Source: a virus. Taken from it: a stretch of 64,000 bases of DNA. Numbering within the stretch: position 1 is the stretch's first letter; each line of letters starts with the position of its first letter. Shown here piece by piece: positions 951 to 61,777 of this stretch. Location of the stretch: positions 1 through 64,000 of the IMG/VR virus record IMGVR_UViG_3300045391_000992; one strand, written 5' to 3'. Below the pieces are notes generated by a model. It was not told where the DNA came from. It did no database searches and saw only the letters and a list, made by a program, of their open reading frames with translations. Made by a program: the position numbers and the translations under genes.

Positions 951-985
951 CTTGACCTCCTTTTATGGTGTACCCTTATACATAC

Positions 986-1921: not shown

Positions 1922-1928
1922 GATGTCC

Positions 1929-7899: not shown

Positions 7900-7904
7900 G
7901 GCAT

Positions 7905-7943: not shown

Positions 7944-8013
7944 AGGCCCTCCCCTTGTCACGTCGCGATCGTCGCGCCGCGTTGCTGGGGCCTGTTAATG
8001 GGAAATGGGAACC

Positions 8014-8048
8014 AAGAAAAAGGGCCGGGGCTGTTGCCTCCCCGGCCC
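8014..8048 (-). terminator. rho-independent terminator
   Basis: Minus strand reads GGGCCGGGG-AGGCAACAG-CCCCGGCCC followed by TTTTTCTTGG, 24 nt after the stop of 8072-8962. Confidence 0.75.
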
Positions 8049-8071
8049 TCACCGTCATTGCACGCGATGAC

Positions 8072-8962: not shown

Positions 8963-9007
8963 TGGTAACTCCTGTTGATGCCCTAAAGTTTATGGTCGGC
9001 GCGTTGA

Positions 9008-9460
9008 TCACAAGGGTTCAGAGTATGAGGCGCTGTTGCCCTCATGCTCTGCGACCGTAACCTTTGCGAGTCTCACACGGGGGCGGACCCCCATGTCATC
9101 GAGCACCGCGAGAGCATGTTGGAACGCGTAGTACGCGAACGCTTCCATGCCGACGCGGGGCAATAACGTGTAGTCGCAGATCCTTCTGCCTTCGATCGTC
9201 GTCAGTTGTTGGATCGCGTCAATGTCATTCTCCGCGATCATTGTCTTGTGATCGAACATATCGACAAGGAACTGTTTCAACGGCTTGAGGCCGCCGAAGT
9301 CAATCACCCAGTTATTCTTGTCGAGCGTTTCGGCCTCGAACTCGAACGTGAACGCGAGCGCGTAGCCATGCAGGAAATGACAATGCGACTCCGCACGCGG
9401 CTGGCGAAAGCACGCGGACAGACCGAGCGAGTGCGGGTAATGCTTCGTGACGTGGTACAT
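9008..9460 (-). CDS. queD: QueD-like 6-carboxytetrahydropterin synthase (PTPS fold), divergent
   Basis: SHCHFLHGY..NWVIDFGGLK..FDHK matches the PTPS/QueD pattern. It reads LHGY where I expect LHGH, and the first Zn-ligand His seems to be absent. Confidence 0.6.
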   Translation of the reverse strand: MYHVTKHYPHSLGLSACFRQPRAESHCHFLHGYALAFTFEFEAETLDKNNWVIDFGGLKPLKQFLVDMFDHKTMIAENDIDAIQQLTTIEGRRICDYTLLPRVGMEAFAYYAFQHALAVLDDMGVRPRVRLAKVTVAEHEGNSASYSEPL

Positions 9461-9536
9461 GATTGCCCCTGTGATGATTAAGCAGGCTACCGCACCCGGC
9501 GATCTCGCGATCGTCAGGTGTCGGTGGCGCTCCTAC

Positions 9537-10088
9537 TTATTCATACTGCGGGTGCAATCGTGCTCCGGCCAGATACTGCACAAGCGCAGTGTGAATGTTG
9601 CGCTTGGCGGGATCGAGGCCTGCGAAACGGCACAGGCGTTCATTCGTCGTTTCGCGGGTGTGATCAAGGCGGAGACGGTAGGGGCCGTTGCTTTCGATCA
9701 TGCGAGTCAGCACCCGCATGAGCGCAGGCGGCAACTGCTTGATGACGAACGCGAGGTCGGGGTCGGAGGTCGGGTCCTCGCCCTCGAGCATGGCTTCCAT
9801 TGACGTGTCGAGATCAGCCTCGGCGACGAGTTCGAGCCGGCTGCGCTTCTTCGATAGGTCGTGGATGTGATTGGTGAAGGCAGTTTTGAAAAGCGCCATG
9901 CGGTGCTTTTGCTCTGTCACGTTCGGGTATCGATTGCACACTCGCACCCAAATCATGAAGCCGTCCTGCATAAGGTCGGCCAAATCGATATGGCTAGAGA
10001 CTCGCCATATATTCTCGCGTGCTGTTTTGAAAATCCAACCGCGGACTCCCTGATCCAAGTTTGTTTCCCCAGACATTCCCATTCCCAT
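9537..10088 (-). CDS. sigma-70-family (ECF-like) RNA polymerase sigma factor
   Basis: Region-2-like DLMQDGFMIWVRVCNRY..FKTAFTNHIHDLSKKRSR. C-terminal region-4-like HTH LPPALMRVL..TNERLCRFAGLD. Three candidate ATGs at 10074-10088. Confidence 0.5.
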   Translation of the reverse strand: MGMGMSGETNLDQGVRGWIFKTARENIWRVSSHIDLADLMQDGFMIWVRVCNRYPNVTEQKHRMALFKTAFTNHIHDLSKKRSRLELVAEADLDTSMEAMLEGEDPTSDPDLAFVIKQLPPALMRVLTRMIESNGPYRLRLDHTRETTNERLCRFAGLDPAKRNIHTALVQYLAGARLHPQYE

Positions 10089-21903: not shown

Positions 21904-22154
21904 CACTTCCACTCCAGCGCTTTGATTTCTGCGCTCGTGTAGAGCTTGAGATTTGTCATCTTGCCCCCGGGTCGCATGTCGATTATTTCGACGCGCGACA
22001 CCTCGCCCCGATCGATGCGAGCCGCCCACGCCAGCGTCTCCGTTTGCGCAGACGATATGCCGCGGTGCGACGTTTCAACGAGCATCACGCCGAACGGCGC
22101 TTTACCCGGGTGCTTCGAGCCTGCGAAGCCTCGTACCCGAAAATCCCAATTCAT
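21903..22154 (-). CDS. hypothetical protein (83 aa)
   Basis: Start at MNWDFRVRG, in an ATGA overlap with the queE stop. Confidence 0.5.
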   Translation of the reverse strand: MNWDFRVRGFAGSKHPGKAPFGVMLVETSHRGISSAQTETLAWAARIDRGEVSRVEIIDMRPGGKMTNLKLYTSAEIKALEWK

Positions 22155-22867
22155 GGCACATCCACCAGCTTGTGCACCTGCAGCGAAAGGCGATACCCGT
22201 GCTCGAGGCACAGGTCGCGCGCCCACTCCCTGTTGCGCTGATTGGGGCCATACTCCTGCTCATCCATCGGGCTGATCCAAATCTGCACGACCGGATGTTT
22301 GGGATAGAACACGACGGAGTCCCGACCCTGATGCTGCGTTGACTTCGTCGGCATGCCCCATTTATCGCCCTCGCCATGCCTGACGACGTATTTCCACGCG
22401 CCGACGAGTCGCTCCAAGTAGGGATGAACCTTCGGCGTCTTGGGACTGCACACGATCAGGTTGCCCGCGATCGTGCGCAACGGATCGAATACAGTGTGCA
22501 GTTCGGGCAGCGTGACGGTGCCCGCAGTTTCGATCGAGCACGAGATACCGAACTCGTTCATGCGTCGCACGAAAGGCACAATGTTCTGCAGGAGCGGTTC
22601 GCCGCCCGTGATCACGACGAGCGAACATTGCTTCCGTCGCGCTATCACGAGCACGTCGTCGACCAAGGCGTGGAGCTCGATCTCCTCGCCCGTCTCAAAC
22701 TCCGTATCACAGAAGTAGCAGCGCAGGTTACACTTCGCGAGGCGCACGAATATGGCGGGGCGGCCGGAGTCCGGTCCCTCCCCCTGCAGTGTGTAGAACA
22801 CTTCGTTCACCAGCAGGTGTGTCCCGCTCTCGTTGAACGATCCGCTCACCTTGTTCTGACCGAACAT
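22151..22867 (-). CDS. queE: 7-carboxy-7-deazaguanine synthase (radical SAM)
   Basis: FYTLQGEGPDSGRPAIFVRLAKCNLRCYFCDT and ITGGEPLL. Start at ATG 22865-22867, with AAGGAAG 6 nt upstream. Confidence 0.85.
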   Translation of the reverse strand: MFGQNKVSGSFNESGTHLLVNEVFYTLQGEGPDSGRPAIFVRLAKCNLRCYFCDTEFETGEEIELHALVDDVLVIARRKQCSLVVITGGEPLLQNIVPFVRRMNEFGISCSIETAGTVTLPELHTVFDPLRTIAGNLIVCSPKTPKVHPYLERLVGAWKYVVRHGEGDKWGMPTKSTQHQGRDSVVFYPKHPVVQIWISPMDEQEYGPNQRNREWARDLCLEHGYRLSLQVHKLVDVP

Positions 22868-23351
22868 GTTTGTCTTCCTTTCTGATGATAAGTTTGAGTA
22901 AGCCATTAGCGGCGTACCCGGGGAACTCCCGATTGATCAGCCCGGGAATGCGGTGTAGCTCGTTCATGAATGACATGTAAGACGGAGCCACCCGCCGCAT
23001 CATCATGTCACGCTCGAGCAGGACCAGCCCGACCTTGAACAGGGCGCGCTGGGCAGTCTTTGAACCGACCTGTGAGATGTAGGCTCTCACACGTGGCAGT
23101 TTGTTTTTGAATGAGTCGTATTGTCGCGCGTGCATAAGGTCGGTAGTGGGGACCGGACGACCCCCTCTATCGCGCCCATGCTCCGCGATCATAACTAACT
23201 CTTCTGGTGCATCAGGGAATGCTACCGCACGATCGGCGCTGCCCGGGCCCAGTTGCAGGAGAACGGTTATGTGGTTCCGTAACTCCTGCAACTCTTGTGA
23301 CGTGAGCCCTTTGGTCGCGCGGATCGCTTTTGCGAGACTGTCTGTCGTCAT
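22728..23351 (-). CDS. hypothetical protein (207 aa); last ~46 codons overlap queE out of frame
   Basis: ORF track. The C-terminal tail is R/P-rich. Confidence 0.5.
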   Translation of the reverse strand: MTTDSLAKAIRATKGLTSQELQELRNHITVLLQLGPGSADRAVAFPDAPEELVMIAEHGRDRGGRPVPTTDLMHARQYDSFKNKLPRVRAYISQVGSKTAQRALFKVGLVLLERDMMMRRVAPSYMSFMNELHRIPGLINREFPGYAANGLLKLIIRKEDKHVRSEQGERIVQRERDTPAGERSVLHTAGGGTGLRPPRHIRAPREV

Positions 23352-44983: not shown

Positions 44984-45535
44984 TTACGAACCGACCACCA
45001 TGTTCGTGAACTTGGCAAGGCCGAACTTGCCGGAGTTCGGTCCCGACGTCGCCGCCAGCACGTCGGCAGTGACCTCCATGTCGTTGAACTCGTCGGAAAT
45101 CATGCCGAGGTCGCCGGTGGGCGTGAACGAGACGTTGTAGAGGTCGACGGTGATCTTCGGACCAACGTCGTTGGTGCCGACGAACCGCAACGCTCCAGTG
45201 ATGGACGAGTTCGCGAAGATCTCGACCTCGGGGCCGCCGACCGCGGCCTCGTCCACGTCGCCGTAGACCATGAGGGCGAAGTTCGCCGGCGTCCATTCCT
45301 GCATTGTGATCTTGCATTCACACTTCTGCTCGATCACGATCACGAGATCCTTCTTCTTCGTGCCCTCACGGGACGAGAAGTGCTCGAGCGTGTCGACCGA
45401 AGGCGTGATCACCATCGCGGACACGTTACCGAGATCGCGATATTCGGAGTCGCCGTCCTTCAAGAAGGAGACGATCCCCTTGCCGACTTGCAGGTTCTTG
45501 ACGTTCGGCGAGATCGTGGTGGGTGTGGTGGGCAT
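44984..45535 (-). CDS. major tail tube protein
   Basis: 183 aa and beta-rich. Lies directly upstream of the chaperone pair. Confidence 0.6.
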   Translation of the reverse strand: MPTTPTTISPNVKNLQVGKGIVSFLKDGDSEYRDLGNVSAMVITPSVDTLEHFSSREGTKKKDLVIVIEQKCECKITMQEWTPANFALMVYGDVDEAAVGGPEVEIFANSSITGALRFVGTNDVGPKITVDLYNVSFTPTGDLGMISDEFNDMEVTADVLAATSGPNSGKFGLAKFTNMVVGS

Positions 45536-48766: not shown

Positions 48767-48807
48767 GAAAACGATAAGAGGGGTGGGCCCTCGGGGGAGC
48801 CCACCCC
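48767..48807 (-). terminator. rho-independent terminator after the capsid gene
   Basis: Minus strand reads GGGGTGGGC..GCCCACCCC followed by TCTTATCGTTTTC. Confidence 0.6.
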
Positions 48808-48843: not shown

Positions 48844-49797
48844 TTAGGAGAGCTGGTCCGACGTGTAGATGCCGTCCACGTAGCGGACAGCCTTCGGACG
48901 ACGGATCTCGAGGCCGGCAACGCGGAAGATGCCGGGGATGTCGTAGATCAGCGGGCCGGTCTGCCACACGGGCAGGAACCGGTGGGTCATCGGGATGTGC
49001 ATCTTCAGCACCTGCGGATCGCGACGATATGCGATCATGCGGCCCGACCCGTTCTGACCTGCGGTCTCCAGACCACGCACACCACGGATCGTCAGCGGCT
49101 GGCCGGTGACCTGGGTGTAGACGTTCTTCGTGGTCAGGTATTCGAGCACCGACGCCGTGGTGTTCGGAATACGCTTGGTGGAGATGATCGTCAGGCAGGG
49201 GATCGGAAGCAGGATCGTGTCCGCCATCTCGACAGTCAGCGACTCGGTGTAGACGCCGGTGATGGCGTTGTTCACGTCGTCGATGATGCCGTCCGCCGAC
49301 TTCAAATTCCAGACCGTGTGGCCTGCTTCGATGCCGGCGAGCACCGCCGTGATGCCCGGGTAGTCGAGGATGCCCGACATGTTCTTCTCGGCCTTGCCGC
49401 GAAGCGCAATGTCGTCCATGAACTCCTCGTATGCACGAAGAGCCGCGGCCGCGCGATCGGGACCCAGGTTGGTACCCGGGATCATCATCGCCTGACCGAG
49501 CTCTTCCAGCGTCCATCGGTAACCGATGTCCGCCATCTCGATGCCGACCTCGTTCTTCGAACGCTCGATATCGGCGACGTGGATGTCCTTCGCGTAGTGA
49601 TGGAACCATCCAGCGCGACCGACCTTGTCGCTCGAGTAGTAGGTCACGGACTTCGCCCACTCGTTCGCAGACGTGTCCACGGGGATCAGCGCCGGGTACT
49701 GAATGTCCGGGTACTGGATCTCGTAGACCTGCTGCTCGATGTAGGCAGTCTGGCTGACAGCGAAGCCAAGGGCTTGCTGTGCGTCGACCATTCGCAT
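48844..49797 (-). CDS. major capsid protein (DUF2184/encapsulin-like class)
   Basis: 317 aa with an AGGAG SD. Follows the scaffold and decoration-like genes and is followed by a terminator. Confidence 0.7.
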   Translation of the reverse strand: MRMVDAQQALGFAVSQTAYIEQQVYEIQYPDIQYPALIPVDTSANEWAKSVTYYSSDKVGRAGWFHHYAKDIHVADIERSKNEVGIEMADIGYRWTLEELGQAMMIPGTNLGPDRAAAALRAYEEFMDDIALRGKAEKNMSGILDYPGITAVLAGIEAGHTVWNLKSADGIIDDVNNAITGVYTESLTVEMADTILLPIPCLTIISTKRIPNTTASVLEYLTTKNVYTQVTGQPLTIRGVRGLETAGQNGSGRMIAYRRDPQVLKMHIPMTHRFLPVWQTGPLIYDIPGIFRVAGLEIRRPKAVRYVDGIYTSDQLS

Positions 49798-49870: not shown

Positions 49871-50356
49871 TTAGGCCGCGCGACCACCCTGCGGGATGGA
49901 CACGATGGCACGACCGCCGACGCCGCAAGACGTCTTCCAGTACGCGCCCGGGATCGGGCCGACAGCACCCGACGCATTGTCGGAGAAGATGCCGGTCGCC
50001 GCGACGAAGTAGACCGCCGCATGTGCGGTGACTGCCTCGTTCGGCTCGACCCAGATATCGCCCGACTCCATGCAGCCGACCGAGTTCGGCGGCAGATAGT
50101 GGTCGAGGTCAGCAGACGCGACGTCGCCCCGGAGGGTGATATCGCGGATGGACACACCACGGAAGCCGGCCAGCGACCCGCCGAGGACAACGCCCTCGTC
50201 CGACAGCGTGCCCTGCGACACGGCGCGACCGAACGGAATGCCCGGCGACGCAGTCTCGCAAATGCCCGTGGTGATCCGCGCCTCGTTCACCTGACCAGCA
50301 AGGGTGCCCGGCGACGGAGGTGCCATACGCTCAGAATAGCTCGTTTGGGTGGTCAT
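49871..50356 (-). CDS. head decoration/cement-like protein (161 aa)
   Basis: Lies between scaffold and capsid genes. AGGAG SD. Gly/Ala-rich and beta-rich. Confidence 0.45.
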   Translation of the reverse strand: MTTQTSYSERMAPPSPGTLAGQVNEARITTGICETASPGIPFGRAVSQGTLSDEGVVLGGSLAGFRGVSIRDITLRGDVASADLDHYLPPNSVGCMESGDIWVEPNEAVTAHAAVYFVAATGIFSDNASGAVGPIPGAYWKTSCGVGGRAIVSIPQGGRAA

Positions 50357-50451: not shown

Positions 50452-51930
50452 TTAGTTCGCCCGGCCGGCGCCCTTGTATGCGTTCTGCAGACGCTGGTCG
50501 CGCGCAGCGATCGCAGCATCGGCCTTCGCACGAGCATCGCCCGAGTCGTGGGTCGGGGTCGAGAACGCAGCGACCGTGGCCGCAAGGCCCGAGGTCTGCG
50601 CATCGGTCGGCTTGACGCCCGCGGTCAGCGTGTCGAATGACACCTTGACCTCGGCATCGCCCCAACCCTTCGCCGCATCGCCGAGCTTGGCATCGACGAC
50701 CTGGCGCATGATCTCCGTGTCGGTCTTGCTGTCCACGACGAGCTTGTCGCCGAGGATCGAGCGAGCCTTGCCGGCGATCACGGCACGATCCTTGACCAGC
50801 TGGTCGAGCTTGGCCGGCGTGATCTTGGCGTCCTCGACTTGCTTCTTCAGGGTCGCGATCTCCGCGTCCTTCGTGGCCATCTCGGTCACGTGCTTCGCAG
50901 AGTCCTCCGACATCTTCTTCTTGTTGGTCTCGTTCTCCGTGTTCGCCTTGGTGAAAGCGTCCTCAGCAGTCTTGACACGCTGGGCGGCGGTGTCGAGAGC
51001 CTTCTGGATGATCTGGGCAGCCTGATCATTCATGACTTCGACGCTGATGCCGTCAACGGACATGATCTTCGACATATTCACTTCCTTCTGGTGTTGCCCG
51101 TCAGCGACGGTGCTGGTGGTGGTCGTTTCGAGGAGCGACAGCATCGAGTCGACGGCGGCGAGAATGTCGCCATCACCCTTTGCGATCGCATTCGCCTTGC
51201 AAGCCCGGAGACCGGCAAGGGATACTACCCCGTCCGCGCTTGCGAACGGGTACTCTTTATCTGCGAGGCATCGCGGAAGCGATCCCTCGGCAAAGCCGGC
51301 ATAGTCTTTCTTGTCGACCTTGCCGTCCATGATGGCCCGCAGACCATCGGCATGCGCCGCGACGATGACCTTCTTTCCGGTGCCATCGCCGATACGCAAT
51401 TGTCCGCCACCACGTGCAGCGTCCACGACTGCAATGTGGTTGGCTCGAATGTTCTTCTGCATGGCATCGTACTGGGTGCCATCGGGTGCAGTGCCCGGGG
51501 AGAAATCGATCTCACACTCGTATCCGACTGAGAGCTCAGCCTTCCCGTCCTTGAACTTCTTGATCGTGCCGCCGTCCATGACGACCATCGGCACTCGAAT
51601 GAAGTCGCCATCGCGAACGACCTCGTCCCCGGCCTGACCCTTCGCATACTGCGACCAGTTGTCGGCCGTAACATTCACAGGCGGGTGGTCGTCAGTGATC
51701 GGCTTGTGAGGGAACGACTGCAGCGACGATGACTTGAACACCTCGTCCTGCGATCGATAAACTTTCATCACCTTCTTGGCGTCCTGCCCGGTCATGCCGA
51801 GCTCGGAGCCGTAGTAGAGTTGAATACCGGTGCGCGCGACACGGGGCATTGCCACCATGTAGCCATCAGTCGTGTACCGTACCTTGGCGGCGTCGTCGAG
51901 ATCGTATCGATCGCAAAGCAGCATTGTCAT
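50452..51930 (-). CDS. capsid scaffolding/prohead core protein (DUF2213-like)
   Basis: N-terminus VRYTTDGYMVAMPRVARTGIQLY..ELSVGY..ANHIAVV, followed by a long coiled coil. Start at ATG 51928-51930 after GGAG. Confidence 0.55.
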   Translation of the reverse strand: MTMLLCDRYDLDDAAKVRYTTDGYMVAMPRVARTGIQLYYGSELGMTGQDAKKVMKVYRSQDEVFKSSSLQSFPHKPITDDHPPVNVTADNWSQYAKGQAGDEVVRDGDFIRVPMVVMDGGTIKKFKDGKAELSVGYECEIDFSPGTAPDGTQYDAMQKNIRANHIAVVDAARGGGQLRIGDGTGKKVIVAAHADGLRAIMDGKVDKKDYAGFAEGSLPRCLADKEYPFASADGVVSLAGLRACKANAIAKGDGDILAAVDSMLSLLETTTTSTVADGQHQKEVNMSKIMSVDGISVEVMNDQAAQIIQKALDTAAQRVKTAEDAFTKANTENETNKKKMSEDSAKHVTEMATKDAEIATLKKQVEDAKITPAKLDQLVKDRAVIAGKARSILGDKLVVDSKTDTEIMRQVVDAKLGDAAKGWGDAEVKVSFDTLTAGVKPTDAQTSGLAATVAAFSTPTHDSGDARAKADAAIAARDQRLQNAYKGAGRAN

Positions 51931-52039
51931 GGTCTCCAATATCCTAACGTTGAAGCACGCGCCCAACGCGGTTTGTGTTACCCAACATAGCGGCCGCTAT
52001 GCGGGCTTTGTGAACGTCGCTAAACTTACGCCCTGCGGT

Positions 52040-52768
52040 TCATGGACGCCAGTACCTCGCGATCCATTTGGTCTGGCCCTGTGCTTCAACGTCCCACGGC
52101 TTCTGCGAGCCATGGAAGAAAATGATGCGCGTCGCCGCCCTGAGCTCGCCCATGATGCGGTTCTGCAATGGGTAGGAGCTCACGAGCGGATAACCCAAGC
52201 CGACGCTCCCCGGCCGAGTGATCAGGTGCATGGACAGCCACGCCTGATCAGAACCCTTGAACCCCGCAGCGGCTGCAACCTTGGGTGACGTGGTCGGATC
52301 GAAACCCGACCATATGTGTTGCAGCGTGCCCGCCGTAAACATTTGCAGTGAGCCATTGAACACGGTCTGTCCGTCCTGACGCCTCAAGTGCCAGCCGACA
52401 AACTCGCCCTCAGTTTTGACGAGCTCGCGCAAGTCGCCGGTGATCAAGGTATCGAGATCGATCGACATGATCCGGTCGCCCTTGTCGATCCCGATATCCT
52501 TCTGCGTGTCACGATCGTAAAGCTTCAAGCGTCGATAGCACGACGGCAGATGCTTGCCCGAGGCGTTCGGCAAATCGTTTGCGTCACGCCACAGGGGCGC
52601 AGTCTCGCACTCGTGTATGCCCTCCTGCCGATCGGTCACGCAGACGATGCGATGCGGCGTTGCCTGCAGATTGCGTCGGAGCATCAACGCCATGATGTCC
52701 ACGTACTCGGGCAGGTAGTGACGTTTGGTGCCCGGCTGCTCCCACTTCCACAACACGATCTGCAACAT
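52040..52768 (-). CDS. nucleotide-sugar-dependent glycosyltransferase-like protein
   Basis: Start at MLQIVLWKWEQPG. Also carries ..IVCVTD.. and ..IMSIDLDTLI. TGATG overlap with the GT2 stop. Confidence 0.45.
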   Translation of the reverse strand: MLQIVLWKWEQPGTKRHYLPEYVDIMALMLRRNLQATPHRIVCVTDRQEGIHECETAPLWRDANDLPNASGKHLPSCYRRLKLYDRDTQKDIGIDKGDRIMSIDLDTLITGDLRELVKTEGEFVGWHLRRQDGQTVFNGSLQMFTAGTLQHIWSGFDPTTSPKVAAAAGFKGSDQAWLSMHLITRPGSVGLGYPLVSSYPLQNRIMGELRAATRIIFFHGSQKPWDVEAQGQTKWIARYWRP

Positions 52769-53496
52769 CAGACCACCACCTGATAATACTCGAACCGAAT
52801 ATGGTTCTTGGCCTTGTAGGCCGGGCCCTTCGCCTTCGCCTCGATCTTCGGGAACTGCGATCGATGGAACGGCGACTCCTTGCGACCCCAGTCCTTGGTG
52901 TTCGCGTCGGAGATTTGATCCGAACCCCAACGCGTCAGCTTGAAGTCGTGAGTCGGCAGCTCCTTCAAGCCCGCTCTCATGCACTTGCGGAAGTTGCCAT
53001 CGGAGCCATACGCCCCCGCGAAGTCTTCGTCGTACCCGCCCATCGTCCAGAAGTCATCCTTCCGCATGATGTAGGAGTTCGCGTGCGGATGGTTCTGCTT
53101 CCCGTCCCAATCGACGCGGTCGGGCATGTAGTAACAGCCCTGCACTGCCTTGTGCGAAACGAAGTCAAGCATCTTGCCGACCTCGAGTCGCGAGAGCATG
53201 TGATCCATGTCCGTCAGGAGCGCCCACTCCGTGTTGACGTGCATCATCGCGAGGTTGCGCGCGCCGTCCTGGTTCCACGGAATGTTCGGCACGATGCGGA
53301 ACAGTCTGATCTGGAACCCGACGTTGCCATACTCCCTGATGACAGGCTCAGCCGGATTGCGCGGCGACCCATCGTCCACGACGATCGCCTGCAACACCAT
53401 ATTCTCGGCTGGCCGGAACATGCGCCATTCGTGCAGCTGCAGACGCAGCATCTTCGGGTTCTCGTAGTAGGGCATCACAATCGTTACTGGAGCCAT
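52768..53496 (-). CDS. family-2 glycosyltransferase
   Basis: VTIVMPYYEN, IVVDDGS, DGARNLA and LLTDMDH motifs. Confidence 0.8.
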   Translation of the reverse strand: MAPVTIVMPYYENPKMLRLQLHEWRMFRPAENMVLQAIVVDDGSPRNPAEPVIREYGNVGFQIRLFRIVPNIPWNQDGARNLAMMHVNTEWALLTDMDHMLSRLEVGKMLDFVSHKAVQGCYYMPDRVDWDGKQNHPHANSYIMRKDDFWTMGGYDEDFAGAYGSDGNFRKCMRAGLKELPTHDFKLTRWGSDQISDANTKDWGRKESPFHRSQFPKIEAKAKGPAYKAKNHIRFEYYQVVV

Positions 53497-53502
53497 GGCG
53501 CG

Positions 53503-54192
53503 CTATCCTTGGAAGTATCGGGTCTTGAGTTCAGGCCGGTCGGGCTTGTAGCCAAGGCTCGAATTCCCATCACCGAAAGTGTGATCGACAAGGCAGGGAA
53601 TGCGGTACATGATCTCCCGGCCTTTTGATGCGAGCACCTGAGCGACTAGGTGATCGACGTTCTTATCCCACCGTGGATCTTGCAAGTAGGCATTCAACAA
53701 ACTCGAGTGCAAGATCAGCGCTGCCCACGAGCGATGATAGACTTGGCACTGAGCTCCCCACGTGCCCCGCCCGAGGTTCAATTGATAGAAGCCCTGCACG
53801 AGCGGCAGCCCGTACTTCTTCTCGAGAACCTTGCTCACGCGGATCGGGCAATAGAGTGAGATGGCTCCGACCCTATCGTCCTTGGACCAGTGTGCAAGGT
53901 CCCACGTCAATGCCGCCGCTGCGTCGCGTGCCCATTGGATATCATCCTCGCAGATCATGATCCAATCGAACGTGGTTTGATCGAACAACTGCCGCAGCGC
54001 GTGAATGTAGTTGCGGAAGTTGCCGCGTTTGATCGCGTTTTGCTCGGTGTGAACACCGTCAGCAACGCATGCCTCGGAGCCGGGCTCCGCGAACACGACC
54101 GCAGTCTGGAAGCCCGCAGCCTTGAACGACTCGACCGAACGGACGAGCGTGGGGCGCTCACGTGGCGCCGTGATGATCCCCACTGCAATCAT
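53503..54192 (-). CDS. GT-A-fold glycosyltransferase-like protein
   Basis: Start at MIAVGIITAPRERP, in an ATGA overlap. MICEDDI is a DxD-type motif. Confidence 0.5.
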   Translation of the reverse strand: MIAVGIITAPRERPTLVRSVESFKAAGFQTAVVFAEPGSEACVADGVHTEQNAIKRGNFRNYIHALRQLFDQTTFDWIMICEDDIQWARDAAAALTWDLAHWSKDDRVGAISLYCPIRVSKVLEKKYGLPLVQGFYQLNLGRGTWGAQCQVYHRSWAALILHSSLLNAYLQDPRWDKNVDHLVAQVLASKGREIMYRIPCLVDHTFGDGNSSLGYKPDRPELKTRYFQG

Positions 54193-54857
54193 GGCAGTTG
54201 CGTCCAGCAGTACGCGACTGACATCTTGTAGTCGCGATGCGTGCTCTTGATGACGGGCCGCAGCTTGTCGCCGAAGCGTTCGTCGAATGCACGATTGACG
54301 CCCGGCCACAAGTAATCATCGCCTGCGATCACACCGCGCGGCTTCATCTTCGGCAACCACGCGTCAAGGTCGGCTTTCACTGCCTCATAAGAGTGGTCGC
54401 CGTCGAGCATCAGGAAGTCGACGGACTGGTCTGCGAACTTCGTCGCGGCCTCGACCGAAGTCATCCGCATCGGTGTGATCTGATGACGCACCGGCCGAAT
54501 GTTATCGATGAAAGTCTCGTAGACCGGCTTCTTCAAATCGGTGAAGTAGGTCGTGTCGCGCAGATCGGGGCCGCCATCGATCCACGGGTCCACGCAACAG
54601 AACTCCACGTTCATGCCCGTATTGATCAGCTCGACCGCCATCAGGGACGCCGAGCGACCAAGCCACGAACCGACTTCGACGAACACCATACCGTGCTTGG
54701 CCTTCGCAGCCATCGCAGTGTAGAGATCGCCGAACGATGCCCACCCGGGCAGACTCTCATAGAAATGTTTCACTGGCGCGTTTCCGTTAGCATACCCCAG
54801 ATTGACGATGCCACGAGTCGGGGCTTGCTCGTGCCAATCACGACGACAACGATCCAA
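54189..54857 (-). CDS. class I SAM-dependent methyltransferase (Methyltransf_24-like)
   Basis: FVEVGSWLGRSA (motif I) and DFLMLDGDHSYE. Confidence 0.7.
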   Translation of the reverse strand: MDRCRRDWHEQAPTRGIVNLGYANGNAPVKHFYESLPGWASFGDLYTAMAAKAKHGMVFVEVGSWLGRSASLMAVELINTGMNVEFCCVDPWIDGGPDLRDTTYFTDLKKPVYETFIDNIRPVRHQITPMRMTSVEAATKFADQSVDFLMLDGDHSYEAVKADLDAWLPKMKPRGVIAGDDYLWPGVNRAFDERFGDKLRPVIKSTHRDYKMSVAYCWTQLP

Positions 54858-54864
54858 CGCTGCT

Positions 54865-56028
54865 TCACGCGTCTTCGAGAGATCGAAGCGCTGCGCGGGT
54901 ATCCCTCGCGAAACGAGCGTCGTCCGCAGGAACGAACACGCAACGACAGTGTGGGTGCGCGGGTATCAAGGAGCGCGCAGTGTCGATGCTGTATGGTCCC
55001 TCCTCGGAGATCGCTTCGCAGACTGGGCATACGTCGTCATCTCCTGCGGTACGCACATTGACATTCTCGCCGAGTCGACGAGCAACGTTGAGTTCAGCAG
55101 CTCGAATACGTCCAATGGTTCGAGCGGAAGGGGTCTGCTTACGTGATACCCGGGACCCCGGACCTGTTCTGCGCGCATCCTTAGTCTTCTTCGAAGTCGC
55201 CTTCTGCGGTTTCGCCTGCGCATCTGTGACCACCTTTGCCTGCGCTCGCGACTCAGGGAGCAGCCCCACACTCTTGAGGCCTGAGGCCTCGTAGATGTCG
55301 AGTGAGGCCTCGGCGTGTGCTCTGATCACGAGCAGTTCAATCATCGCATTGGCCCGGACCACCCCGACCTTCTCGATGATGTTCAGTATCTGCCGCGTGA
55401 TCTGCATGGGCTTCGACCCATTGAGCAAACCATTCGACACGGCGCGAACGGCCTGCTGACTGACGGCTTCTATGATCCCCTCGAGTTCGACACGCGCCAG
55501 CGATTGCAGTGCCGCTTCACGATGCCCCGACAAGGGGTTGGTGACTTGGGTCTTGGCCTGCGCCTGCCCGAACTTCACACCGGCACCATAGGCTTCGTTC
55601 AAGAAAGGTCGCATGAACGACCCATCCTTCTGCAGCACTGCGTTCTGCAATGCCATGTCGAACCAACGCTGGAACACGTCGATCTTCGAACCGGCGCCCG
55701 TGATGGTAGGCGAGTTCAGGTTTGTCAGGCCGCCATTCTTGATCGACAGAAGGTCTTGTTTGTTGACCATCTGTTTCGTGAGCTCGCGCAATTGGTTCCA
55801 GCGTTGACGCAACGCCATGCGGAACTTCGAGCGGAGCTTGCCCGTGTTCGTCGGGTCGACGAGCACGACGCGTTTGGCATCGTTCGCCTGACAACACGCG
55901 CAGCGCGCGGAGTCGGTGAACGTGTGGCCGTGATACTTCAACATGAACTGACGCCTGTTCTCGTTCGCCGTCTTCAGCCGAAGACGAGCTTGAGGTACAA
56001 AGAAGCGGCCGCCGTGCCCAGCAACCAT
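54865..56028 (-). CDS. head morphogenesis protein (SPP1 gp7 / Mu F-like)
   Basis: C-terminus VCPVCEAISEEGPYSIDTARSLIPAHPHCRCVFVP. Start at ATG 56026-56028 after GGGGAG. Confidence 0.75.
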   Translation of the reverse strand: MVAGHGGRFFVPQARLRLKTANENRRQFMLKYHGHTFTDSARCACCQANDAKRVVLVDPTNTGKLRSKFRMALRQRWNQLRELTKQMVNKQDLLSIKNGGLTNLNSPTITGAGSKIDVFQRWFDMALQNAVLQKDGSFMRPFLNEAYGAGVKFGQAQAKTQVTNPLSGHREAALQSLARVELEGIIEAVSQQAVRAVSNGLLNGSKPMQITRQILNIIEKVGVVRANAMIELLVIRAHAEASLDIYEASGLKSVGLLPESRAQAKVVTDAQAKPQKATSKKTKDARRTGPGSRVSRKQTPSARTIGRIRAAELNVARRLGENVNVRTAGDDDVCPVCEAISEEGPYSIDTARSLIPAHPHCRCVFVPADDARFARDTRAALRSLEDA

Positions 56029-56143: not shown

Positions 56144-56446
56144 TCACTTGCATGGCTGCGCCTTGCCCAAGTCATATGCCTCGCGCATCGCATCGTACCG
56201 CGCGGAGCCTTGACACATCTGCTTCCATCGACGCTCATAGTATTGGTCGCCAAACTTCTCGTCACTCGGCTCGAACCGATCGCAATGTGACTTGCCACAC
56301 TTGATCAGGTTTGGCAGAGCTAGGTCTGCGCCATGAGCTTGAACGTAGAACATCAAACTCACGAACGCGACCAAGACCCCGAACATGGCGAATATGCGCC
56401 CGCCGCGCGGCCCCGCCTGGTTTGCGTTATAAGTGTCGAGTAGCAT
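56144..56446 (-). CDS. small membrane-anchored Cys-containing protein (100 aa)
   Basis: TM segment IFAMFGVLVAFVSLMFYV. 1-nt overlap with the upstream stop. Confidence 0.5.
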   Translation of the reverse strand: MLLDTYNANQAGPRGGRIFAMFGVLVAFVSLMFYVQAHGADLALPNLIKCGKSHCDRFEPSDEKFGDQYYERRWKQMCQGSARYDAMREAYDLGKAQPCK

Positions 56447-57588
56447 CAGATGAGCTCCAGCATAACGAGTGTGTTCTCATATGCAGTCCGATCAATCTGC
56501 TTGATCGACTGCGGTTCGATTTGTTGCACGTCGTCACGACGCACGATTATTTCAGGCTCAGGCTTCACAGCCTCGGGCACAATCGAGGGCGGGTCCCATG
56601 TCAGCGCGGGAGCCACGACCTCAGGCACTTGCTCGAACGCGTGTGGTGTCAGATCAGCAAGCGGTTCGGTTTTGATGACACCCGACGCACCGCCCGACAC
56701 GATGCCGACTGCAATCGTGACGACCTGACCCTGCGCTACAGCATCACGCCCCTTGCGATAACCAACGCCAACACCCGCAACGCGACGCGCAACGATCTCA
56801 CCAGTCGCCTTGCCTGCGATGACAGACCACGTCCCCGTGATCGTGTCGCCGTTTGCAGTCGCGTCTCCTGCCTCGCCACCCGTCGCCGTGCCTGCTTCAA
56901 TCGACAAGCCGACTTCGATCGTCTCGCCCTCGACCGTTGCTCCTGCAGTCGCGGTGCCTGCGATCAGACTGGAGTCGACCGCGATCGTGTCGCCTTGCGG
57001 GTTTGCATCACCCGTTGCAACGCCTTCGAGAACCTCGAGCACAGTGGCGAGTACATCGCCCCCTACATTCGCGTCGCCTGAGGCCTGCCCGTCAATGACG
57101 GCGACTGTGCTCGTGAGGACGGCCCCGTTCGCGGCCCCGTCCCCGATCGCGCCCCCTGCGACGATCGACGTGGCAGTCGTAAGCACTGCCCCCGCGATCG
57201 ACGCGCCACCCGTTGCGGCCCCTGTTGCGATCGACGTCGCAACAGTAAGGGTCGCTCCGCTTGCATTCGCAGCGCCCGATGCTGACCCCGCGATAATCGA
57301 GGTCGCGTCCGTGATCGTCGTACCCGACGCATTGGCGGCGCCTGATGCAGCGCCCGCGGCCAGCGACGTTGTGACTACGTTGGTCGTCCCGCTGACGTTC
57401 GCCGTGCCAGTCGCAGCGCCCGCGATCACGGAGCTTGCAACCGTGAGGGTCGCGCCCGGTTCGGTGATCGCGGTCGTCCCTGCGATCAGGGACGCAGTGA
57501 CTGTGAGTGTTACGCCCGACGCATTGCCGTTGACCTCAGCGAACGTGCCAAGCGGTATTACGCCAAGCGATTCTCCGCCTAGTATCAC
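56446..57588 (-). CDS. fibre-like protein built from about eleven 22-aa repeats
   Basis: Probable GTG start. Repeat units read G-x-T-L-T-V-x-S-S-(L/V)-I-A-G-x-A-x-G-x-A-N-x-S. Confidence 0.55.
   Translation of the reverse strand: MILGGESLGVIPLGTFAEVNGNASGVTLTVTASLIAGTTAITEPGATLTVASSVIAGAATGTANVSGTTNVVTTSLAAGAASGAANASGTTITDATSIIAGSASGAANASGATLTVATSIATGAATGGASIAGAVLTTATSIVAGGAIGDGAANGAVLTSTVAVIDGQASGDANVGGDVLATVLEVLEGVATGDANPQGDTIAVDSSLIAGTATAGATVEGETIEVGLSIEAGTATGGEAGDATANGDTITGTWSVIAGKATGEIVARRVAGVGVGYRKGRDAVAQGQVVTIAVGIVSGGASGVIKTEPLADLTPHAFEQVPEVVAPALTWDPPSIVPEAVKPEPEIIVRRDDVQQIEPQSIKQIDRTAYENTLVMLELI
56809..57519 (-). repeat. 66-nt in-frame tandem repeats (about 11 units, diverged)
   Basis: Periodic protein units, for example GATLTVASSVIAGAATGTANVS and GTTITDATSIIAGSASGAANAS. 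Confidence 0.7.
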
Positions 57589-57658
57589 GGCTTGGACTTC
57601 TTCGGCGGCTCGGCCTTCGGATCGGCCGGCGGGGTCGACGCCATGATGACTGCAGCGC

Positions 57659-59104
57659 TCATGTCAGGTTCGTTCCGTTGATGATCCATTCGGTCGTCGT
57701 GATCTTGATCGCCGTCGCGATACCGTTCGCCGTCAGTGTTCTGCTGCCGGTCGTGCCAGCGCCAGCCAAGCGCATTGTGTCGCTCGTGATAGCGATCGTG
57801 AGTGTCCCTGCTCCATTCTGATTGACAAACGTCAGCGTCGTTCCGACTGGGTGTGAGACGTTCGCGTTGCTGTCAATCGTGAACGTGCGGGCGGTAGTGT
57901 CCGCAGACGGGTGAAGCAGCGTACCATTCGCATCGACCGCCCGCGTCGTGTAGTCCGCAGACTTACTGGCAAACGGCATCGGTGCCGTGATCGTGTTCCA
58001 CACGCCGTCGCCGCTTATCGTGCCGTCAACGCTTCCGGTAAACGGCCGGTAGCCGGTCGTGCTTGCGCGAATAAAGGCATTGTCCGCGACGCTGAAGTGC
58101 TTTCCGGTGAACGAACCAGAAGTCGTCAGACCGGTGAGGTCCATCCGCCCATGACCCTGCGCCAACACGAACGCGCTGGAGAAAGTCGGTGTCCCGGTCA
58201 CTGTGATGGCGCCGACCGCTGACGGCAGATCGAGCGACGCAGTGTTGATCAGGCCACTGGTGTCTACGACGAGATGGAACGCCGCGCCGCCGATGATCTG
58301 GTTCGTACCGTACGGCTCGACTGTGCCGCCGTTCGCGGCGACGACGTGCAGAACAGGAGCCACGTCAAATACGATATTGGTGTACTGCAAACGCCCCGGC
58401 GAGCGAGACGCGATATGGAACCCGCTCGTCGTCGTCTTGGTCTTCATATCCTTGATGCGAACGATGCCAGTGAGTACGCCATATGACGCGTCCCAAATGT
58501 TCGCACCAGTCACGTTGAAGAACACGTTCGCCGGTGTGGACGAGTTGCCCTGAAAGACAATGACGCCGCCACCGATCCACGTTTTGATCTGCGTGCCACC
58601 AGTGTATGTGCCGTCAGCAATCTGCACCGTTACCGTGAAGCCCGCGACGTCGAGCGTGGCGGCGATGGTGTCCATTGCCTTCTGCGTCGTGAGAAACGCG
58701 CCACCGCTCGCGTTGGTCAGGCCGTTGTTACTATCGCTGCCATCGGTACGAACGTAGTAAGTTCGATCGGCCGTCAGCTTCTCGCGCATCCGCATGTCCT
58801 CGGCGAGGAGGATCACGCCGACAACAGGCGCCGCAGTGAAGTTGATCTTCGACGTGGTGCCCGACGAATTGTAGAGCACGGTCGTTCGGGTCAGTGTGCT
58901 GGACGCCGAGGTCCACGTGCCGACGCCGATCTCCCACTGAGTTCTGTCCGCACTCTCGGCGCGATAGGAGAACTGTTGACCAGTAACGCCCCCGGCCGCC
59001 GCGACAGACTGATAGCCGGTCGAGACGGTCGAGACGACGAAGTCGCCAGTTCCCGAGGACGCGGCCTGAAACTTGACCGCGTCGAGTTGGACAGAGACCG
59101 TCAT
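57659..59104 (-). CDS. tailspike/fibre with pectate-lyase-like beta-helix signature
   Basis: DRTYYVRTDGSDSNNGLTNASGGAFLTTQKAMD is a typical beta-helix N-cap motif. Ser/Thr/Gly-rich and beta-rich. Confidence 0.55.
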   Translation of the reverse strand: MTVSVQLDAVKFQAASSGTGDFVVSTVSTGYQSVAAAGGVTGQQFSYRAESADRTQWEIGVGTWTSASSTLTRTTVLYNSSGTTSKINFTAAPVVGVILLAEDMRMREKLTADRTYYVRTDGSDSNNGLTNASGGAFLTTQKAMDTIAATLDVAGFTVTVQIADGTYTGGTQIKTWIGGGVIVFQGNSSTPANVFFNVTGANIWDASYGVLTGIVRIKDMKTKTTTSGFHIASRSPGRLQYTNIVFDVAPVLHVVAANGGTVEPYGTNQIIGGAAFHLVVDTSGLINTASLDLPSAVGAITVTGTPTFSSAFVLAQGHGRMDLTGLTTSGSFTGKHFSVADNAFIRASTTGYRPFTGSVDGTISGDGVWNTITAPMPFASKSADYTTRAVDANGTLLHPSADTTARTFTIDSNANVSHPVGTTLTFVNQNGAGTLTIAITSDTMRLAGAGTTGSRTLTANGIATAIKITTTEWIINGTNLT

Positions 59105-59105
59105 A

Positions 59106-59525
59106 TCAGTTCTGGAACCGCAGGGTCGAGGCGGTCAGGGCGAAGGTGCCAGCGCTCGAGGAAATGTCCGAACCGAAGTCGATGTAAGCGACCAGTTCGT
59201 CGGCCGAGCTCGCACCGCCACGCGACTTGTAGTAGACGGCGCCGCGCGCAGTGATGGTCGAGGTCGGCCACGACACAGCGCCCAGTGTGATCTCGATGCG
59301 GTCGTTTGTCGTGTCGATCGCGTTGACTGTGAACGTCGCAGCCGCGCCCCCGGCCGTGTAGCCTGTGCCGGACACCTCGTTGGTGACGTCGTTGCGGAAG
59401 TCGTCGGTGTCCTTGTTCGGGGTATATGACGACGTAACGAGCATGCACTTGAAGGTGTCGCTGTCAAAGTCGATATTGCCCTTGACCTGGTTCCAGATCG
59501 CGTTGTTGTAGATGATCGACGCCAT
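59106..59525 (-). CDS. small virion protein (139 aa)
   Basis: Same length and general pattern as 30683-31102. Lies directly after the portal gene. Confidence 0.45.
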   Translation of the reverse strand: MASIIYNNAIWNQVKGNIDFDSDTFKCMLVTSSYTPNKDTDDFRNDVTNEVSGTGYTAGGAAATFTVNAIDTTNDRIEITLGAVSWPTSTITARGAVYYKSRGGASSADELVAYIDFGSDISSSAGTFALTASTLRFQN

Positions 59526-59530
59526 TGGTA

Positions 59531-61777
59531 TTAATCCTCAGCTGGGGTTTCAGTGATAGTCTTGACACGACCATGCTCGTCGTGCTCGACCTGCTTCGTG
59601 ACCTTGCCGCTCTTCACATGGACATCCACGTGAACGACTGGGGCCGGAACGACAATCGGAGCCGGCGGTGTGGTAACTACGTCAGTCGCTAGCTCCTTCG
59701 GCGCGTTGAAGAAGCCATCATCGGGCTTGATCTCCTCGAACTCCTCGGGTCCGAGCATGATCGGTCCGGTGTAGGCCGGGAGCGTCAAGGGATTGATCGC
59801 ACCCGCGTCGGCCGAGATCGACACGTGCGGTGTGTAGTCGTCATAGTCCCAAGTGCCGCCCGTGCGGTCGAGGATCGAGCAGTGCCGCCACGACAGGTCG
59901 GAGTTCGCGAACGCGAGCACCAGATACTTGCCGAACTGTTCGTTGACGCGCGGACCACCAGCCTTGACCGTGAGGTTGCCGTTCTGGTCGTTGCCCCAAG
60001 TGTCTTCGCCAACCTTGAGCCAATCGACCGGGGTCTTCGAATAACACACCGTCACATGCATGTCGGCGCCCATGACGTTCTGCACACCCGCGTCCTTGTA
60101 GAACTTTGCAATGTCGCGCCAGTTCAGCACGGGGCGGTTGATGTACAGTGTCCGCGGCGTGCTCGCGTCGATCAGCTGTGCGTCGCGAATACGGGTCGCC
60201 ATGGCTTCGATCGCAGCATCCTGCCCCACTACCTTCTTCTTGGGAGGCGGCACGGACTTGCTGGGAGACGGCACAGGCGGTTCGTTCGCGTTCGCCGGGG
60301 CAGGAGGCGCATTCGGATCGGGAATTGCTCGTGCCATCGCCTCGGGATCGTTCGGATCGGGAGCCTGCCCGGTCTGCGGATCGATCATGGGCGTCGCCGC
60401 AGGAGCAGCAGGCGTCTCACGCTCATTGATGTCCGTACCGTACTCTTCAATGATCTGCTCGATGCCCGGGTAGAAGCCAGACTCGATCAGCTGGTTCTCG
60501 CGTGCCTTCTGCAGAACCATCGGGTCCATGAGGCCAGCAGTGACGTCGGCAGTCATAACGTTTGCCTGCTGCACGGCGATAGCGGCCTTGGCGGCATCGT
60601 CCATCTGCCATAGCGGGTTCCAATTGTAGAACATGCCATCGGGCGCTTTGCCGAAGGCCGAGATCTGGAGCAGTGTGTCGAGCGGGGAGATCGTCGGTGC
60701 GATCTCGATCTTCTGCTCGGTGCTGACGCGGTCGTAGTAATTGCGGGTATCGGAGTCACCGGTCGCATTCATGCCCTTGGGCGCCTGACCAAGGAAGCGT
60801 GTCGCGGGAATGTCGGCCGCGCCGCACACTACAAGGAAGAACTCCTGCATCACCTCGGGCATGCCGGTGAAGATCTGATTGACGCGCGTCCATTCCTCTT
60901 CCTTGTCGATCAACAGCACGCTGTAAATCGACTTCATCACACCCGCCATGGCGAAGCGAGTCTTCAGTCGGTTCTCGTACTCGGTGCTGCTGATGCGCTC
61001 GGAGAGTTCGGGGATCTTGACGATATCGACCTTGGCTTCTTGAATGAGCGAGGTCATCGACTGCATGACGGTGCCGGTCGCGATCACGGCATCAGCGACG
61101 ATCTGCAACACCGAGTCACCCCAGCCCATCGACTGATTGATGTCCGGAACCTCGGCCCCGACGAAGCGGCAGATGCGCGATGGGTGAATACGAACCACGG
61201 TCTGCCCCGGCACCGAACGATCGTAGTATGAGGGGGTGCCGAAGTAGGGCGACGTGATGTCCCAATCGATTTGACCGGCGCTGATCTCGTAGCGATTGAC
61301 GACATGCACGAACTTGAGACAGCCTTCACCGAGCTTGTCCATGTCGAGCGGCTCTTCCGGCTTGCCCTGATCAACGCCGAGCACGAGCGCAGCGCCTCCG
61401 TACAGACGGGCACGCTGCAGGACCGACATGACCTTGCGCTGAATGCCCAGCGACTCCTCGAGATCTGAGATCTTCGCGATGTCCTCGGAGTCGGCCTGCC
61501 ATGTGCGCCACTCGCGTGTCGCGTCGAATGACGGGATGTCGATCACCTTACGGCTGATCCAGTCACCGCGGTATGCGGCCTCGGCCTGCGCTCGATCGAG
61601 CGCATTGAACGCAAACTGCGTCGCGATCGACTTGTCCTTGCCCGTGCCCATACCCGTCACGAGATTGACGAGCGAGTCTTGCGCGCGGAACAACGGATGC
61701 ACGTTGCCACCACTGACCCGCTGAACCGCAGGAGCTGCGGGCTTCGTGTCCGCAGTCCGCTTTGCCGTCTTGCCCAT
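59531..61777 (-). CDS. portal protein (DUF1073 type) fused to a C-terminal 2H-phosphoesterase-like domain
   Basis: Portal body with LVTGMGTGKDK. Pro/Ala linker at aa ~455-520. C-terminal domain with HVTV and HVSI motifs 77 aa apart. Confidence 0.75.
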   Translation of the reverse strand: MGKTAKRTADTKPAAPAVQRVSGGNVHPLFRAQDSLVNLVTGMGTGKDKSIATQFAFNALDRAQAEAAYRGDWISRKVIDIPSFDATREWRTWQADSEDIAKISDLEESLGIQRKVMSVLQRARLYGGAALVLGVDQGKPEEPLDMDKLGEGCLKFVHVVNRYEISAGQIDWDITSPYFGTPSYYDRSVPGQTVVRIHPSRICRFVGAEVPDINQSMGWGDSVLQIVADAVIATGTVMQSMTSLIQEAKVDIVKIPELSERISSTEYENRLKTRFAMAGVMKSIYSVLLIDKEEEWTRVNQIFTGMPEVMQEFFLVVCGAADIPATRFLGQAPKGMNATGDSDTRNYYDRVSTEQKIEIAPTISPLDTLLQISAFGKAPDGMFYNWNPLWQMDDAAKAAIAVQQANVMTADVTAGLMDPMVLQKARENQLIESGFYPGIEQIIEEYGTDINERETPAAPAATPMIDPQTGQAPDPNDPEAMARAIPDPNAPPAPANANEPPVPSPSKSVPPPKKKVVGQDAAIEAMATRIRDAQLIDASTPRTLYINRPVLNWRDIAKFYKDAGVQNVMGADMHVTVCYSKTPVDWLKVGEDTWGNDQNGNLTVKAGGPRVNEQFGKYLVLAFANSDLSWRHCSILDRTGGTWDYDDYTPHVSISADAGAINPLTLPAYTGPIMLGPEEFEEIKPDDGFFNAPKELATDVVTTPPAPIVVPAPVVHVDVHVKSGKVTKQVEHDEHGRVKTITETPAED

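Follow-up and report, generated by a model that had tools for sequence, protein, structure and literature searches.

A conserved glycosyltransferase and methyltransferase cassette in the head module of an uncultured tailed phage is a candidate system for virion glycosylation

The viral contig IMGVR_UViG_3300045391_000992 is 75.8 kb long, and its first 64,000 nucleotides (nt; positions 1-64,000, referred to here as the window) contain the late, structural module of a tailed phage, in which a cassette of four enzyme genes is embedded. All genes of this region lie on the minus strand. In the direction of transcription, the terminase large subunit and portal genes are followed by four poorly characterised genes, a MuF-like gene, the four cassette genes and a DUF2213 protease/scaffold gene; next come the genes for a cement protein, the PF09950 capsid protein, and connector and tail proteins, including the major tail protein and the tape measure. 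The cassette encodes a methyltransferase dependent on S-adenosylmethionine (SAM) (MT; 54189-54857, or to 54773 if a more probable start is used), a putative glycosyltransferase named P2 (53503-54192), a family 2 glycosyltransferase (GT2; 52768-53496) and a second putative glycosyltransferase named P4 (52040-52768). Its upstream border is the MuF-like head-morphogenesis gene (54865-56028 from the predicted start, with the open frame reaching 56298), which matched phrog_758 (E = 2.2e-11) as well as other head-morphogenesis families. The gene on the downstream border (50452-51930) had been called a scaffold gene in a first-pass annotation made from the sequence alone. Its C-terminal part is indeed scaffold-like; the gene as such, however, encodes a DUF2213 head-maturation protease (PF09979, E = 1.2e-56; phrog_530, E = 1e-87).

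The same annotation had described four tightly packed genes between these borders. All four open reading frames were found where it placed them, and the motifs that it quoted (VEVGSWLGRS, LMLDGDHSYE, MICEDDI, VMPYYEN, VVDDGS, TDMDH, VLWKW, VCVTD and SIDLD) are all present in the translations. The stop codon of MT and the start codon of P2 overlap in an ATGA (54189-54192), and those of GT2 and P4 overlap in a TGATG (52766-52770). A spacer of 6 nt separates the P2 stop codon TAG (53503-53505) from the GT2 start codon ATG (53494-53496). The stop codon of P4 (52040-52042) is located 109 nt ahead of the protease ATG at 51930, which is preceded by a GGAG ribosome-binding site. This gap also harbours a perfect 16-nt palindrome, CATAGCGGCCGCTATG (51986-52001), which is found nowhere else in the window and has no T-run after it. 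No terminator-like site was detected on the coding strand from the MuF-like gene to the capsid gene. A terminator-like hairpin (48780-48807, minus strand; 11-bp stem including 9 G-C pairs, with a T-rich tail after it) is situated just 3′ of the capsid gene, where the transcript containing the cassette probably ends. Since the stretch between the MuF-like gene and the capsid gene is free of terminators and ends in a strong hairpin, co-transcription of the cassette with the head genes can reasonably be inferred. No transmembrane segments were predicted in any of the four enzymes, which appear to be soluble and cytoplasmic.

MT was assigned to the Methyltransf_24 family (PF13578, E = 3.8e-20), in agreement with the initial reading of this gene. 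The superfamily of Methyltransf_24 and TylF includes sugar O-methyltransferases. The start codon had been placed at TTG 54857, giving a protein of 222 amino acids (aa). A GTG at 54773 is more probable, because gene callers give the resulting 194 aa on other contigs with an identical neighbouring gene and further homologues have 195-196 aa (194-196 aa overall). A comparison of MT with a phage collection yielded methyltransferases of cyanophages and cluster K mycobacteriophages with no obvious link to glycosylation and was uninformative. GT2 proved to be a canonical member of its family, as had been proposed, with a PF00535 match (E = 2.6e-10) well above the Pfam gathering score (40.9 versus 23.3 bits) and with the VVDDGS and TDMDH motifs of an inverting-type enzyme with a GT-A fold.

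The two other transferases, P2 and P4, showed no match at the sequence level to Pfam (E <= 0.01), NCBIfam or the PDB and were therefore placed by fold. An AlphaFold2 (AF2) model of P2, built from an alignment of 37 homologues, was a confident GT-A fold (predicted local distance difference test [pLDDT] score of 92), consistent with the GT-A-like protein suspected from its motifs. Foldseek placed the GT13 enzymes GnT-I and POMGnT1 and the mimivirus protein R655 nearest to this model (template modelling [TM] score of about 0.6), and the GT25 enzyme COLGALT1 ranked 32nd in the list. There was no sequence match to CAZy GT25 (PF01755) at E <= 0.01. P2 can be described as a predicted soluble GT-A glycosyltransferase of the GT25/GT13 type. 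Invariant within its family are the residues C81-E82-D83-D84 (CEDD) and H204. We found 124 metagenomic homologues, many of them on phage contigs of 70-80 kb, and no match by tblastn in 50,697 phage records. A fold search against BFVD returned generic GT-A matches only.

P4, the fourth transferase-like protein, was likewise modelled as a confident GT-A fold (pLDDT of 90; alignment of 35 homologues), and at the level of profiles it matched phrog_1962 (E = 5e-12). The nearest structures were the GT8 enzymes LgtC, glycogenin and GlyE, with LgtC as the best match; TM scores of about 0.55-0.61 were accompanied by a sequence identity of about 14%. P4 has in common with these retaining enzymes the GT-A fold, a DxD motif (D104 and D106, both invariant) and the H-G-x-x-K-P-W motif, here within a C-terminal FFHGxxKPW in which G220, K223, P224 and W225 never vary and F217, F218 and H219 are almost invariant. 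It differs from the GT8 family (PF01501) in that it defines a phage-restricted family without a Pfam GT8 match. Judged by its model, P4 is GT8-like and of the retaining type rather than a demonstrated member of GT8. Glycogenin and GlyE act on proteins or glycoproteins. The P4 family comprises 223 metagenomic homologues, again with many on 70- to 80-kb phage contigs. A pattern search in 185,579 species-representative genomes recovered relatives on three contigs of metagenome-assembled genomes only, one of which is a phage contig of 75,335 nt; at the sensitivity of this search, the family is restricted to phages.

We then compared the locus with those of related phages. Megablast of 14 kb against GenBank phages identified no near-identical phage; the window capsid protein shares about 50% of its residues with its counterparts in Aminobacter phage Erebus, Rhizobium phages RHEph04-06 and RHph_N17 and Pseudanabaena phage Pam3. 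P4 and the protease gene occur together in 28 loci of the window clade, and in each of these P4 lies just upstream of the protease gene, with a gap of 123 nt or less in 25 loci. The synteny comparison thus bore out the placement of the cassette ahead of the protease. The partners of P4 vary: besides the MT-P2-GT2-P4 arrangement of the window, we observed MT-GT2-P4, GT2-P4 (at times with extra P4 paralogues and MT-like genes) and P4 next to an ATP-grasp-like gene, in some cases together with a divergent Methyltransf_24 gene. Because the partner genes differ between P4-bearing loci, P4 is the constant member of the cassette. In the isolated relatives Erebus and RHph_N17, unrelated small genes occupy the space between the MuF-like and protease genes. 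The slot is therefore plastic, yet it is occupied by P4 throughout the window clade, and the cassette is a conserved feature and no sporadic moron. A strict nesting of the cassette genes (P4 < GT2 < MT < P2), which would have implied a fixed order of action, was weakened by further searches and was dropped, because supposed P4-only loci contain the ATP-grasp-like gene and sometimes a divergent Methyltransf_24 gene and because some GT2-P4 loci contain extra P4 paralogues and MT-like genes.

The ATP-grasp-like gene belongs to a family of proteins of about 300 residues that adjoins P4 in about half of the P4-positive relatives (for example, L017:9080-9988, L007:9081-10004, L019:8123-9157 and L025:7814-8713), including the unrelated loci L030, L031 and L033 (alignment A5). 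It was seen in no locus lacking P4 and is absent from the window. Its likeness to ATP-grasp enzymes of the RimK/LysX type is weak (below threshold in Pfam; PDB profile matches to ArgX, LysX and RimK at E = 0.04-0.8). Protein C-termini are the substrates of RimK and LysX enzymes. The open reading frames ahead of the head protease gene include one for a protein with an ADP-ribosyltransferase toxin-like domain in one relative (L125:1113-1856) and one for a NUDIX hydrolase in another (L121:3936-4478), so this region collects other enzymatic cargo too.

Homologues of P4 (33-40% identity) and GT2 were also found within the structural modules of unrelated HK97-type siphoviruses. In the record of Tetraselmis viridis virus S20 (L086, NC_020840), a glyco cluster of nine genes (4125-9708) is inserted between the capsid and head-closure genes. 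As in the window, it is embedded in the structural module and contains a P4 homologue (37% identity), a GT2 homologue (gp44, 36% identity) and a methyltransferase. It differs from the window by its size, by additional GT-D and sialyltransferase-like enzymes and by belonging to another, uncharacterised phage lineage. The record is attributed to an algal host, and its gene set is that of an HK97-type siphophage. In locus L076, the order is portal, protease, capsid, further genes, P4, adaptor, head closure, terminator and major tail; in L040, it is capsid, portal, fibre-like gene, sialyltransferase-like gene, P4, two MT genes, a P4 paralogue, GT2 and adaptor. A capsid relative without P4 (L136) carries a nonhomologous GT9-like gene and two FkbM methyltransferase genes (354-3724) directly upstream of its DUF2213 protease gene.

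To our knowledge, glycosylation of phage particles has been demonstrated only for mycobacteriophages, and a 2023 study by Freeman is said to have reported little evidence of virion glycosylation in the wider phage population. Among mycobacteriophages, two reports describe glycosylated virion proteins in Che8, Corndog and Myrna and present Che8 gp110 and Corndog gp38 as essential for capsid glycosylation (PMC12363180; PMC11600133). The glycans are located at the C-termini of capsid and tail-tube subunits, according to another report (PMC12619734). Corndog encodes an O-methyltransferase and three glycosyltransferases between its portal and protease genes (PMC4351075). The view expressed in the first-pass annotation, according to which genes of this kind had no known precedent within a head operon, was therefore too strong.

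P2 provides one link between the two systems. Alignment with hhalign of the P2 family and the family of gp38 and gp110 (eight members) gave a probability of 96.1% (E = 3.2e-9; 146 columns), and the motifs LGxxN, (C/L)EDD, SLY and (C/S)LVDH are in register. The control comparisons of P4 with the gp38/gp110 family and of P2 with P4 gave 0.1% and 1.4%, respectively. Since there is no BLAST-level similarity between P2 and Corndog gp38 or Che8 gp110, the homology detected by profile alignment is a remote one. The GT25 match of gp38 itself is marginal (24.5 bits versus a cut-off of 24). The GT2 family profile aligned with Corndog gp37, a GT2-like protein with a PF10111 match (95.3%), and with Che8 gp109 (95.6%).

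The likeness to Corndog (cluster O) extends to the composition and position of the set, i.e., one methyltransferase and three glycosyltransferases in a similar slot ahead of the protease, with MT falling into the Pfam family of gp35 (PF13578 at 1.8e-9 and TylF at 7.6e-13 for gp35). In both phages, the capsid and major tail proteins end in serine. However, similarity between the sets is detectable with profiles only, and the gene orders differ (MT-P2-GT2-P4 in the window, MT-gp36-gp37-gp38 in Corndog). Neither Corndog nor Che8 encodes an equivalent of P4, and the window lacks one of Corndog gp36. The head architecture of the window, with its PF09950 capsid, DUF2213 protease, cement protein and MuF-like protein, is unlike that of Corndog; its host is probably Gram negative, whereas Corndog infects a mycobacterium. 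Moreover, glycosylation has been demonstrated for Corndog and is predicted from the genes for the window. Che8 (cluster F) possesses the homologous pair of a GT2-like protein (gp109) and a GT25-like protein (gp110), but its gp108-gp110 genes are located at the right genome end, outside the head operon, in a block without a methyltransferase or a P4-like enzyme.

Candidate acceptor sites emerged from the C-termini of the major virion proteins. The capsid protein (48844-49797; PF09950, E = 2e-73) ends with the seven residues YTSDQLS (48847-48867), which follow a conserved …DGI. In a search for loci selected by P4, 18 distinct complete capsid sequences were obtained; all 18, like the window, carry a tail of 5-8 residues with Ser, Thr or Tyr beyond …RYxDGI. 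Most of these tails end in Ser (e.g., YTSDQLS in the window, LTVDQLS, LTSDELS, WTVDQAS, TGDNPS, SGDEPS, LNYVS and SDYAS), and some end in Glu (LDTAYE, LAAPSDSE and MDANYE). The eight isolated P4-negative relatives all lack such a tail; seven stop at …RYxDG(I/V/Y) or a divergent equivalent and one stops at …DGALAAA. A second set of IMG/VR loci was picked by capsid similarity alone and screened with hidden Markov models of all four cassette families. Here, a tail was present in all 10 P4-positive loci and in 12 of the 33 P4-negative ones, being absent from the other 21 (Fisher p = 5e-4, uncorrected for phylogeny). The major tail (tube) protein of the window (44984-45535; phrog_807, E = 8.4e-34) ends in …FTNMVVGS. 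Its homologues from P4-positive loci have variable tails of 3-9 residues, and every complete one ends in Ser except that of L034, which has a long extension ending in …VDVTT. The corresponding proteins of Che8 end in …NKTGS (capsid) and …YSDGS (major tail), and those of Corndog end in …PLVGS and …IKGDS. Together with these serine ends, the tail pattern provides the strongest specific support for the C-termini of capsid and tail tube as putative acceptors. Glu-ended capsid tails were checked against the presence of the RimK/LysX-like gene and did not track it. A Tyr near the end of the capsid tail was found in 8 of 10 cassettes without P2 and in 0 of 10 full cassettes, a difference confounded by phylogeny.

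We consider it probable that the cassette O-glycosylates virion proteins, with a methylated glycan being placed on capsid and tail tube. That the enzymes put such a glycan on a virion protein was also the initial proposal; it is the best-supported reading, on circumstantial grounds, because placement in the head module is conserved and because P2 and GT2 are remotely homologous to the Corndog and Che8 enzymes. According to this proposal, the cassette would be expressed late, at the same time as the head proteins, and its soluble, cytoplasmic products would draw on nucleotide sugars of the host and on SAM. On the exposed C-terminal tails of the capsid (…DGI-YTSDQLS) and the major tail protein (…FTN-MVVGS), they would assemble a short O-linked glycan that is O-methylated in part. 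P4, as the constant and retaining-type enzyme, would probably prime the glycan, the inverting GT-A enzymes GT2 and P2 would extend or branch it, and the Methyltransf_24 enzyme would cap a sugar hydroxyl. The resulting coat on the particle surface might be of benefit through shielding, stability or adhesion.

Several observations weigh against this proposal. It may be that the P4-positive phages make up a single clade and that the tail was simply inherited within it. The 12 P4-negative relatives with capsid tails (among them L121, L122, L125, L126, L145 and L158) have S/T/G/P-rich ones such as SGVGSP, SGPGSP and TDGTTP; profiles of P4, P2, GT2 and MT detected nothing within 7 kb of these 12 capsid genes, and no glycosyltransferase was found in the slot ahead of the protease in 11 of the 12 (Pfam-sampled in four), the exception being L136, whose capsid protein ends in SEPPASDSAS. 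Such tails without P4 count against a simple rule that a tail means glycosylation. Terminal Ser is not universal either, since in the unrelated P4-bearing siphoviruses the capsid proteins end in …GSPA or …GSTT and the major tail proteins end in …LP. The match between GT2 and gp37 may, at least in part, be generic to the GT2 family, and the MT family profile gave no specific alignment to Corndog gp35. Furthermore, P2 is dispensable across the relatives, and the P2-like enzyme is described as essential in mycobacteriophages, so that the division of labour may differ between the two. Finally, GT8, GT25, GT2 and Methyltransf_24 enzymes are also typical of outer-core synthesis of lipopolysaccharide (LPS) and lipooligosaccharide (LOS), and thus the folds do not discriminate between targets.

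The last point leads to remodelling of the host envelope, in which the enzymes would act at the inner face of the host membrane on lipid-linked intermediates of LPS, LOS or exopolysaccharide, or else on glycoproteins of the host, pilin or flagellin for example. The cell surface would thereby be altered during infection, e.g., so that adsorption of progeny or competitor phages is blocked. In favour of this possibility, LPS/LOS outer-core enzymes belong to the same fold families, with LgtC as the best structural match of P4; some P2 homologues were named [quoted passage not shown] by the Joint Genome Institute; and the MuF-to-protease gap of Erebus and RHph_N17 is filled with unrelated cargo. 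However, the cassette comprises no flippase, polymerase, acyltransferase or membrane protein, and none of its enzymes has a transmembrane segment. P4 is practically absent from the 185,579 cellular species genomes and from prophages and is kept beside the protease gene clade-wide, homologous cassettes lie within the structural modules of unrelated phages, and a function in the envelope leaves the association of P4 with capsid and tail C-termini unexplained. Our Pfam scan of the window, which covered all minus-strand open reading frames of at least 220 aa and the head-module genes, also gave no integrase match. We therefore regard envelope remodelling as unlikely. Modification of another phage protein, or a glycan made for another purpose, seems less likely still. 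The cement protein (49871-50356) and the scaffold/protease would be possible targets, as would two proteins encoded nearby: p481 (57659-59104), which is fibre-like and has no family match, and p380 (56446-57588), which consists of about twelve A/G/T/S-rich repeats of 22 residues with four NxS sequons. In L040, a gene for a collagen-like or fibre-like protein precedes the glyco cluster. Yet homologues of p481 were detectable in few related loci, most relatives with the full cassette having none, and homologues of p380 were detected in no related locus. The sole structural features that track P4 are the C-terminal tails of the capsid and major tail proteins, and we know of no N-glycosyltransferases among GT-A enzymes of these types, which likewise counts against such targets.

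A role in DNA hypermodification, mentioned as an alternative at the outset, is disfavoured by the gene content. Sugars, later methylated, would in this case be transferred to hydroxylated or hydroxymethylated bases of the genome before packaging, allowing restriction to be evaded. DNA is a well-known substrate of phage glycosyltransferases (PMC13326640; also Pyle 2024, as cited in PMC12619734), the cassette lies near packaging genes, and the best PHROGs match of MT is labelled "DNA methyltransferase." The window also encodes a DNA polymerase A (PolA; 2222-4816, minus strand) with an N-terminal domain of the uracil-DNA glycosylase (UDG) superfamily and a radical SAM protein of 251 aa (22151-22906, minus strand; adjoining genes without a family match). 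The UDG-superfamily domain or the radical SAM protein could bear on DNA metabolism or modification. However, in known pathways of DNA glycosylation the acceptor hydroxyl has to be made by a thymidylate-synthase homologue or a TET/5mYOX dioxygenase (PMC13326640), and no thymidylate-synthase-like or TET-like Pfam match was obtained among the minus-strand open reading frames of at least 220 aa in the window, about 11.8 kb of the 75.8-kb genome lying outside it. MT belongs to the Methyltransf_24/TylF family of small-molecule and sugar O-methyltransferases and not to a DNA methyltransferase family, and a function in DNA modification leaves the homology to the protein-glycosylation enzymes of Corndog and Che8 unexplained. 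We consider this role very improbable.

Further features of the window characterise the phage in which the cassette resides. The portal gene (59531-61777, minus strand; PF06381, E = 1.6e-99) encodes at its C-terminus an Acb1 phosphodiesterase domain directed against the cyclic-oligonucleotide-based antiphage signalling system (anti-CBASS; PF23474, E = 1.2e-28; residues 542-686, at about 59720-60154), and the same fusion occurs in the relatives L003 and L004. Four genes (56144-59525, minus strand) separate portal from MuF; in Erebus and RHph_N17, MuF directly follows the portal. In addition to p481 and p380, these genes encode p139 (59106-59525), which matched phrog_644 and is 75-82% identical in relatives, a conservation about that of the capsid protein, and p100 (56144-56446), which has one predicted membrane helix. 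The endolysin combines a GH108 domain with a peptidoglycan-binding domain, the G+C content is about 59%, and PolA is accompanied by a DnaB-like helicase, an SNF2 helicase and a clamp-loader-like protein. From its sequence, the phage likely infects a Gram-negative host.

Compared with the Corndog and Che8 system, of which the cassette would be a distant counterpart, the type of phage, the probable type of host and the GT8-like core enzyme are new. The cassette type appears to be widespread in uncultured phages. We tentatively suggest, as a possibility that we hold less firmly than glycosylation of the virion in this phage, that P4 typifies a family of GT8-like O-glycosyltransferases for proteins that is restricted to phages and primes C-terminal glycans on capsid and tail tube in several unrelated lineages of environmental tailed phages, with interchangeable partners (GT2, GT25-like, GT-D and GT9 enzymes, methyltransferases and RimK/LysX-like ATP-grasp ligases). 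Glycosylation of virions would in that case be a widespread and modular phage trait well beyond the Actinobacteria. Should the cassette of the window have the function of its Corndog counterpart, a large clade of environmental siphoviruses with genomes of about 75 kb, together with several unrelated siphovirus lineages, would have glycan-coated virions made with a new core enzyme, P4. Surface properties of such phages, such as their stability, adhesion and recognition by hosts, grazers and antibodies, might then be predictable from sequence, and proteomics and cryo-electron microscopy of their particles would have to take the modification into account. Moreover, phage particles could be glyco-engineered with these small soluble enzymes and the short acceptor tags.

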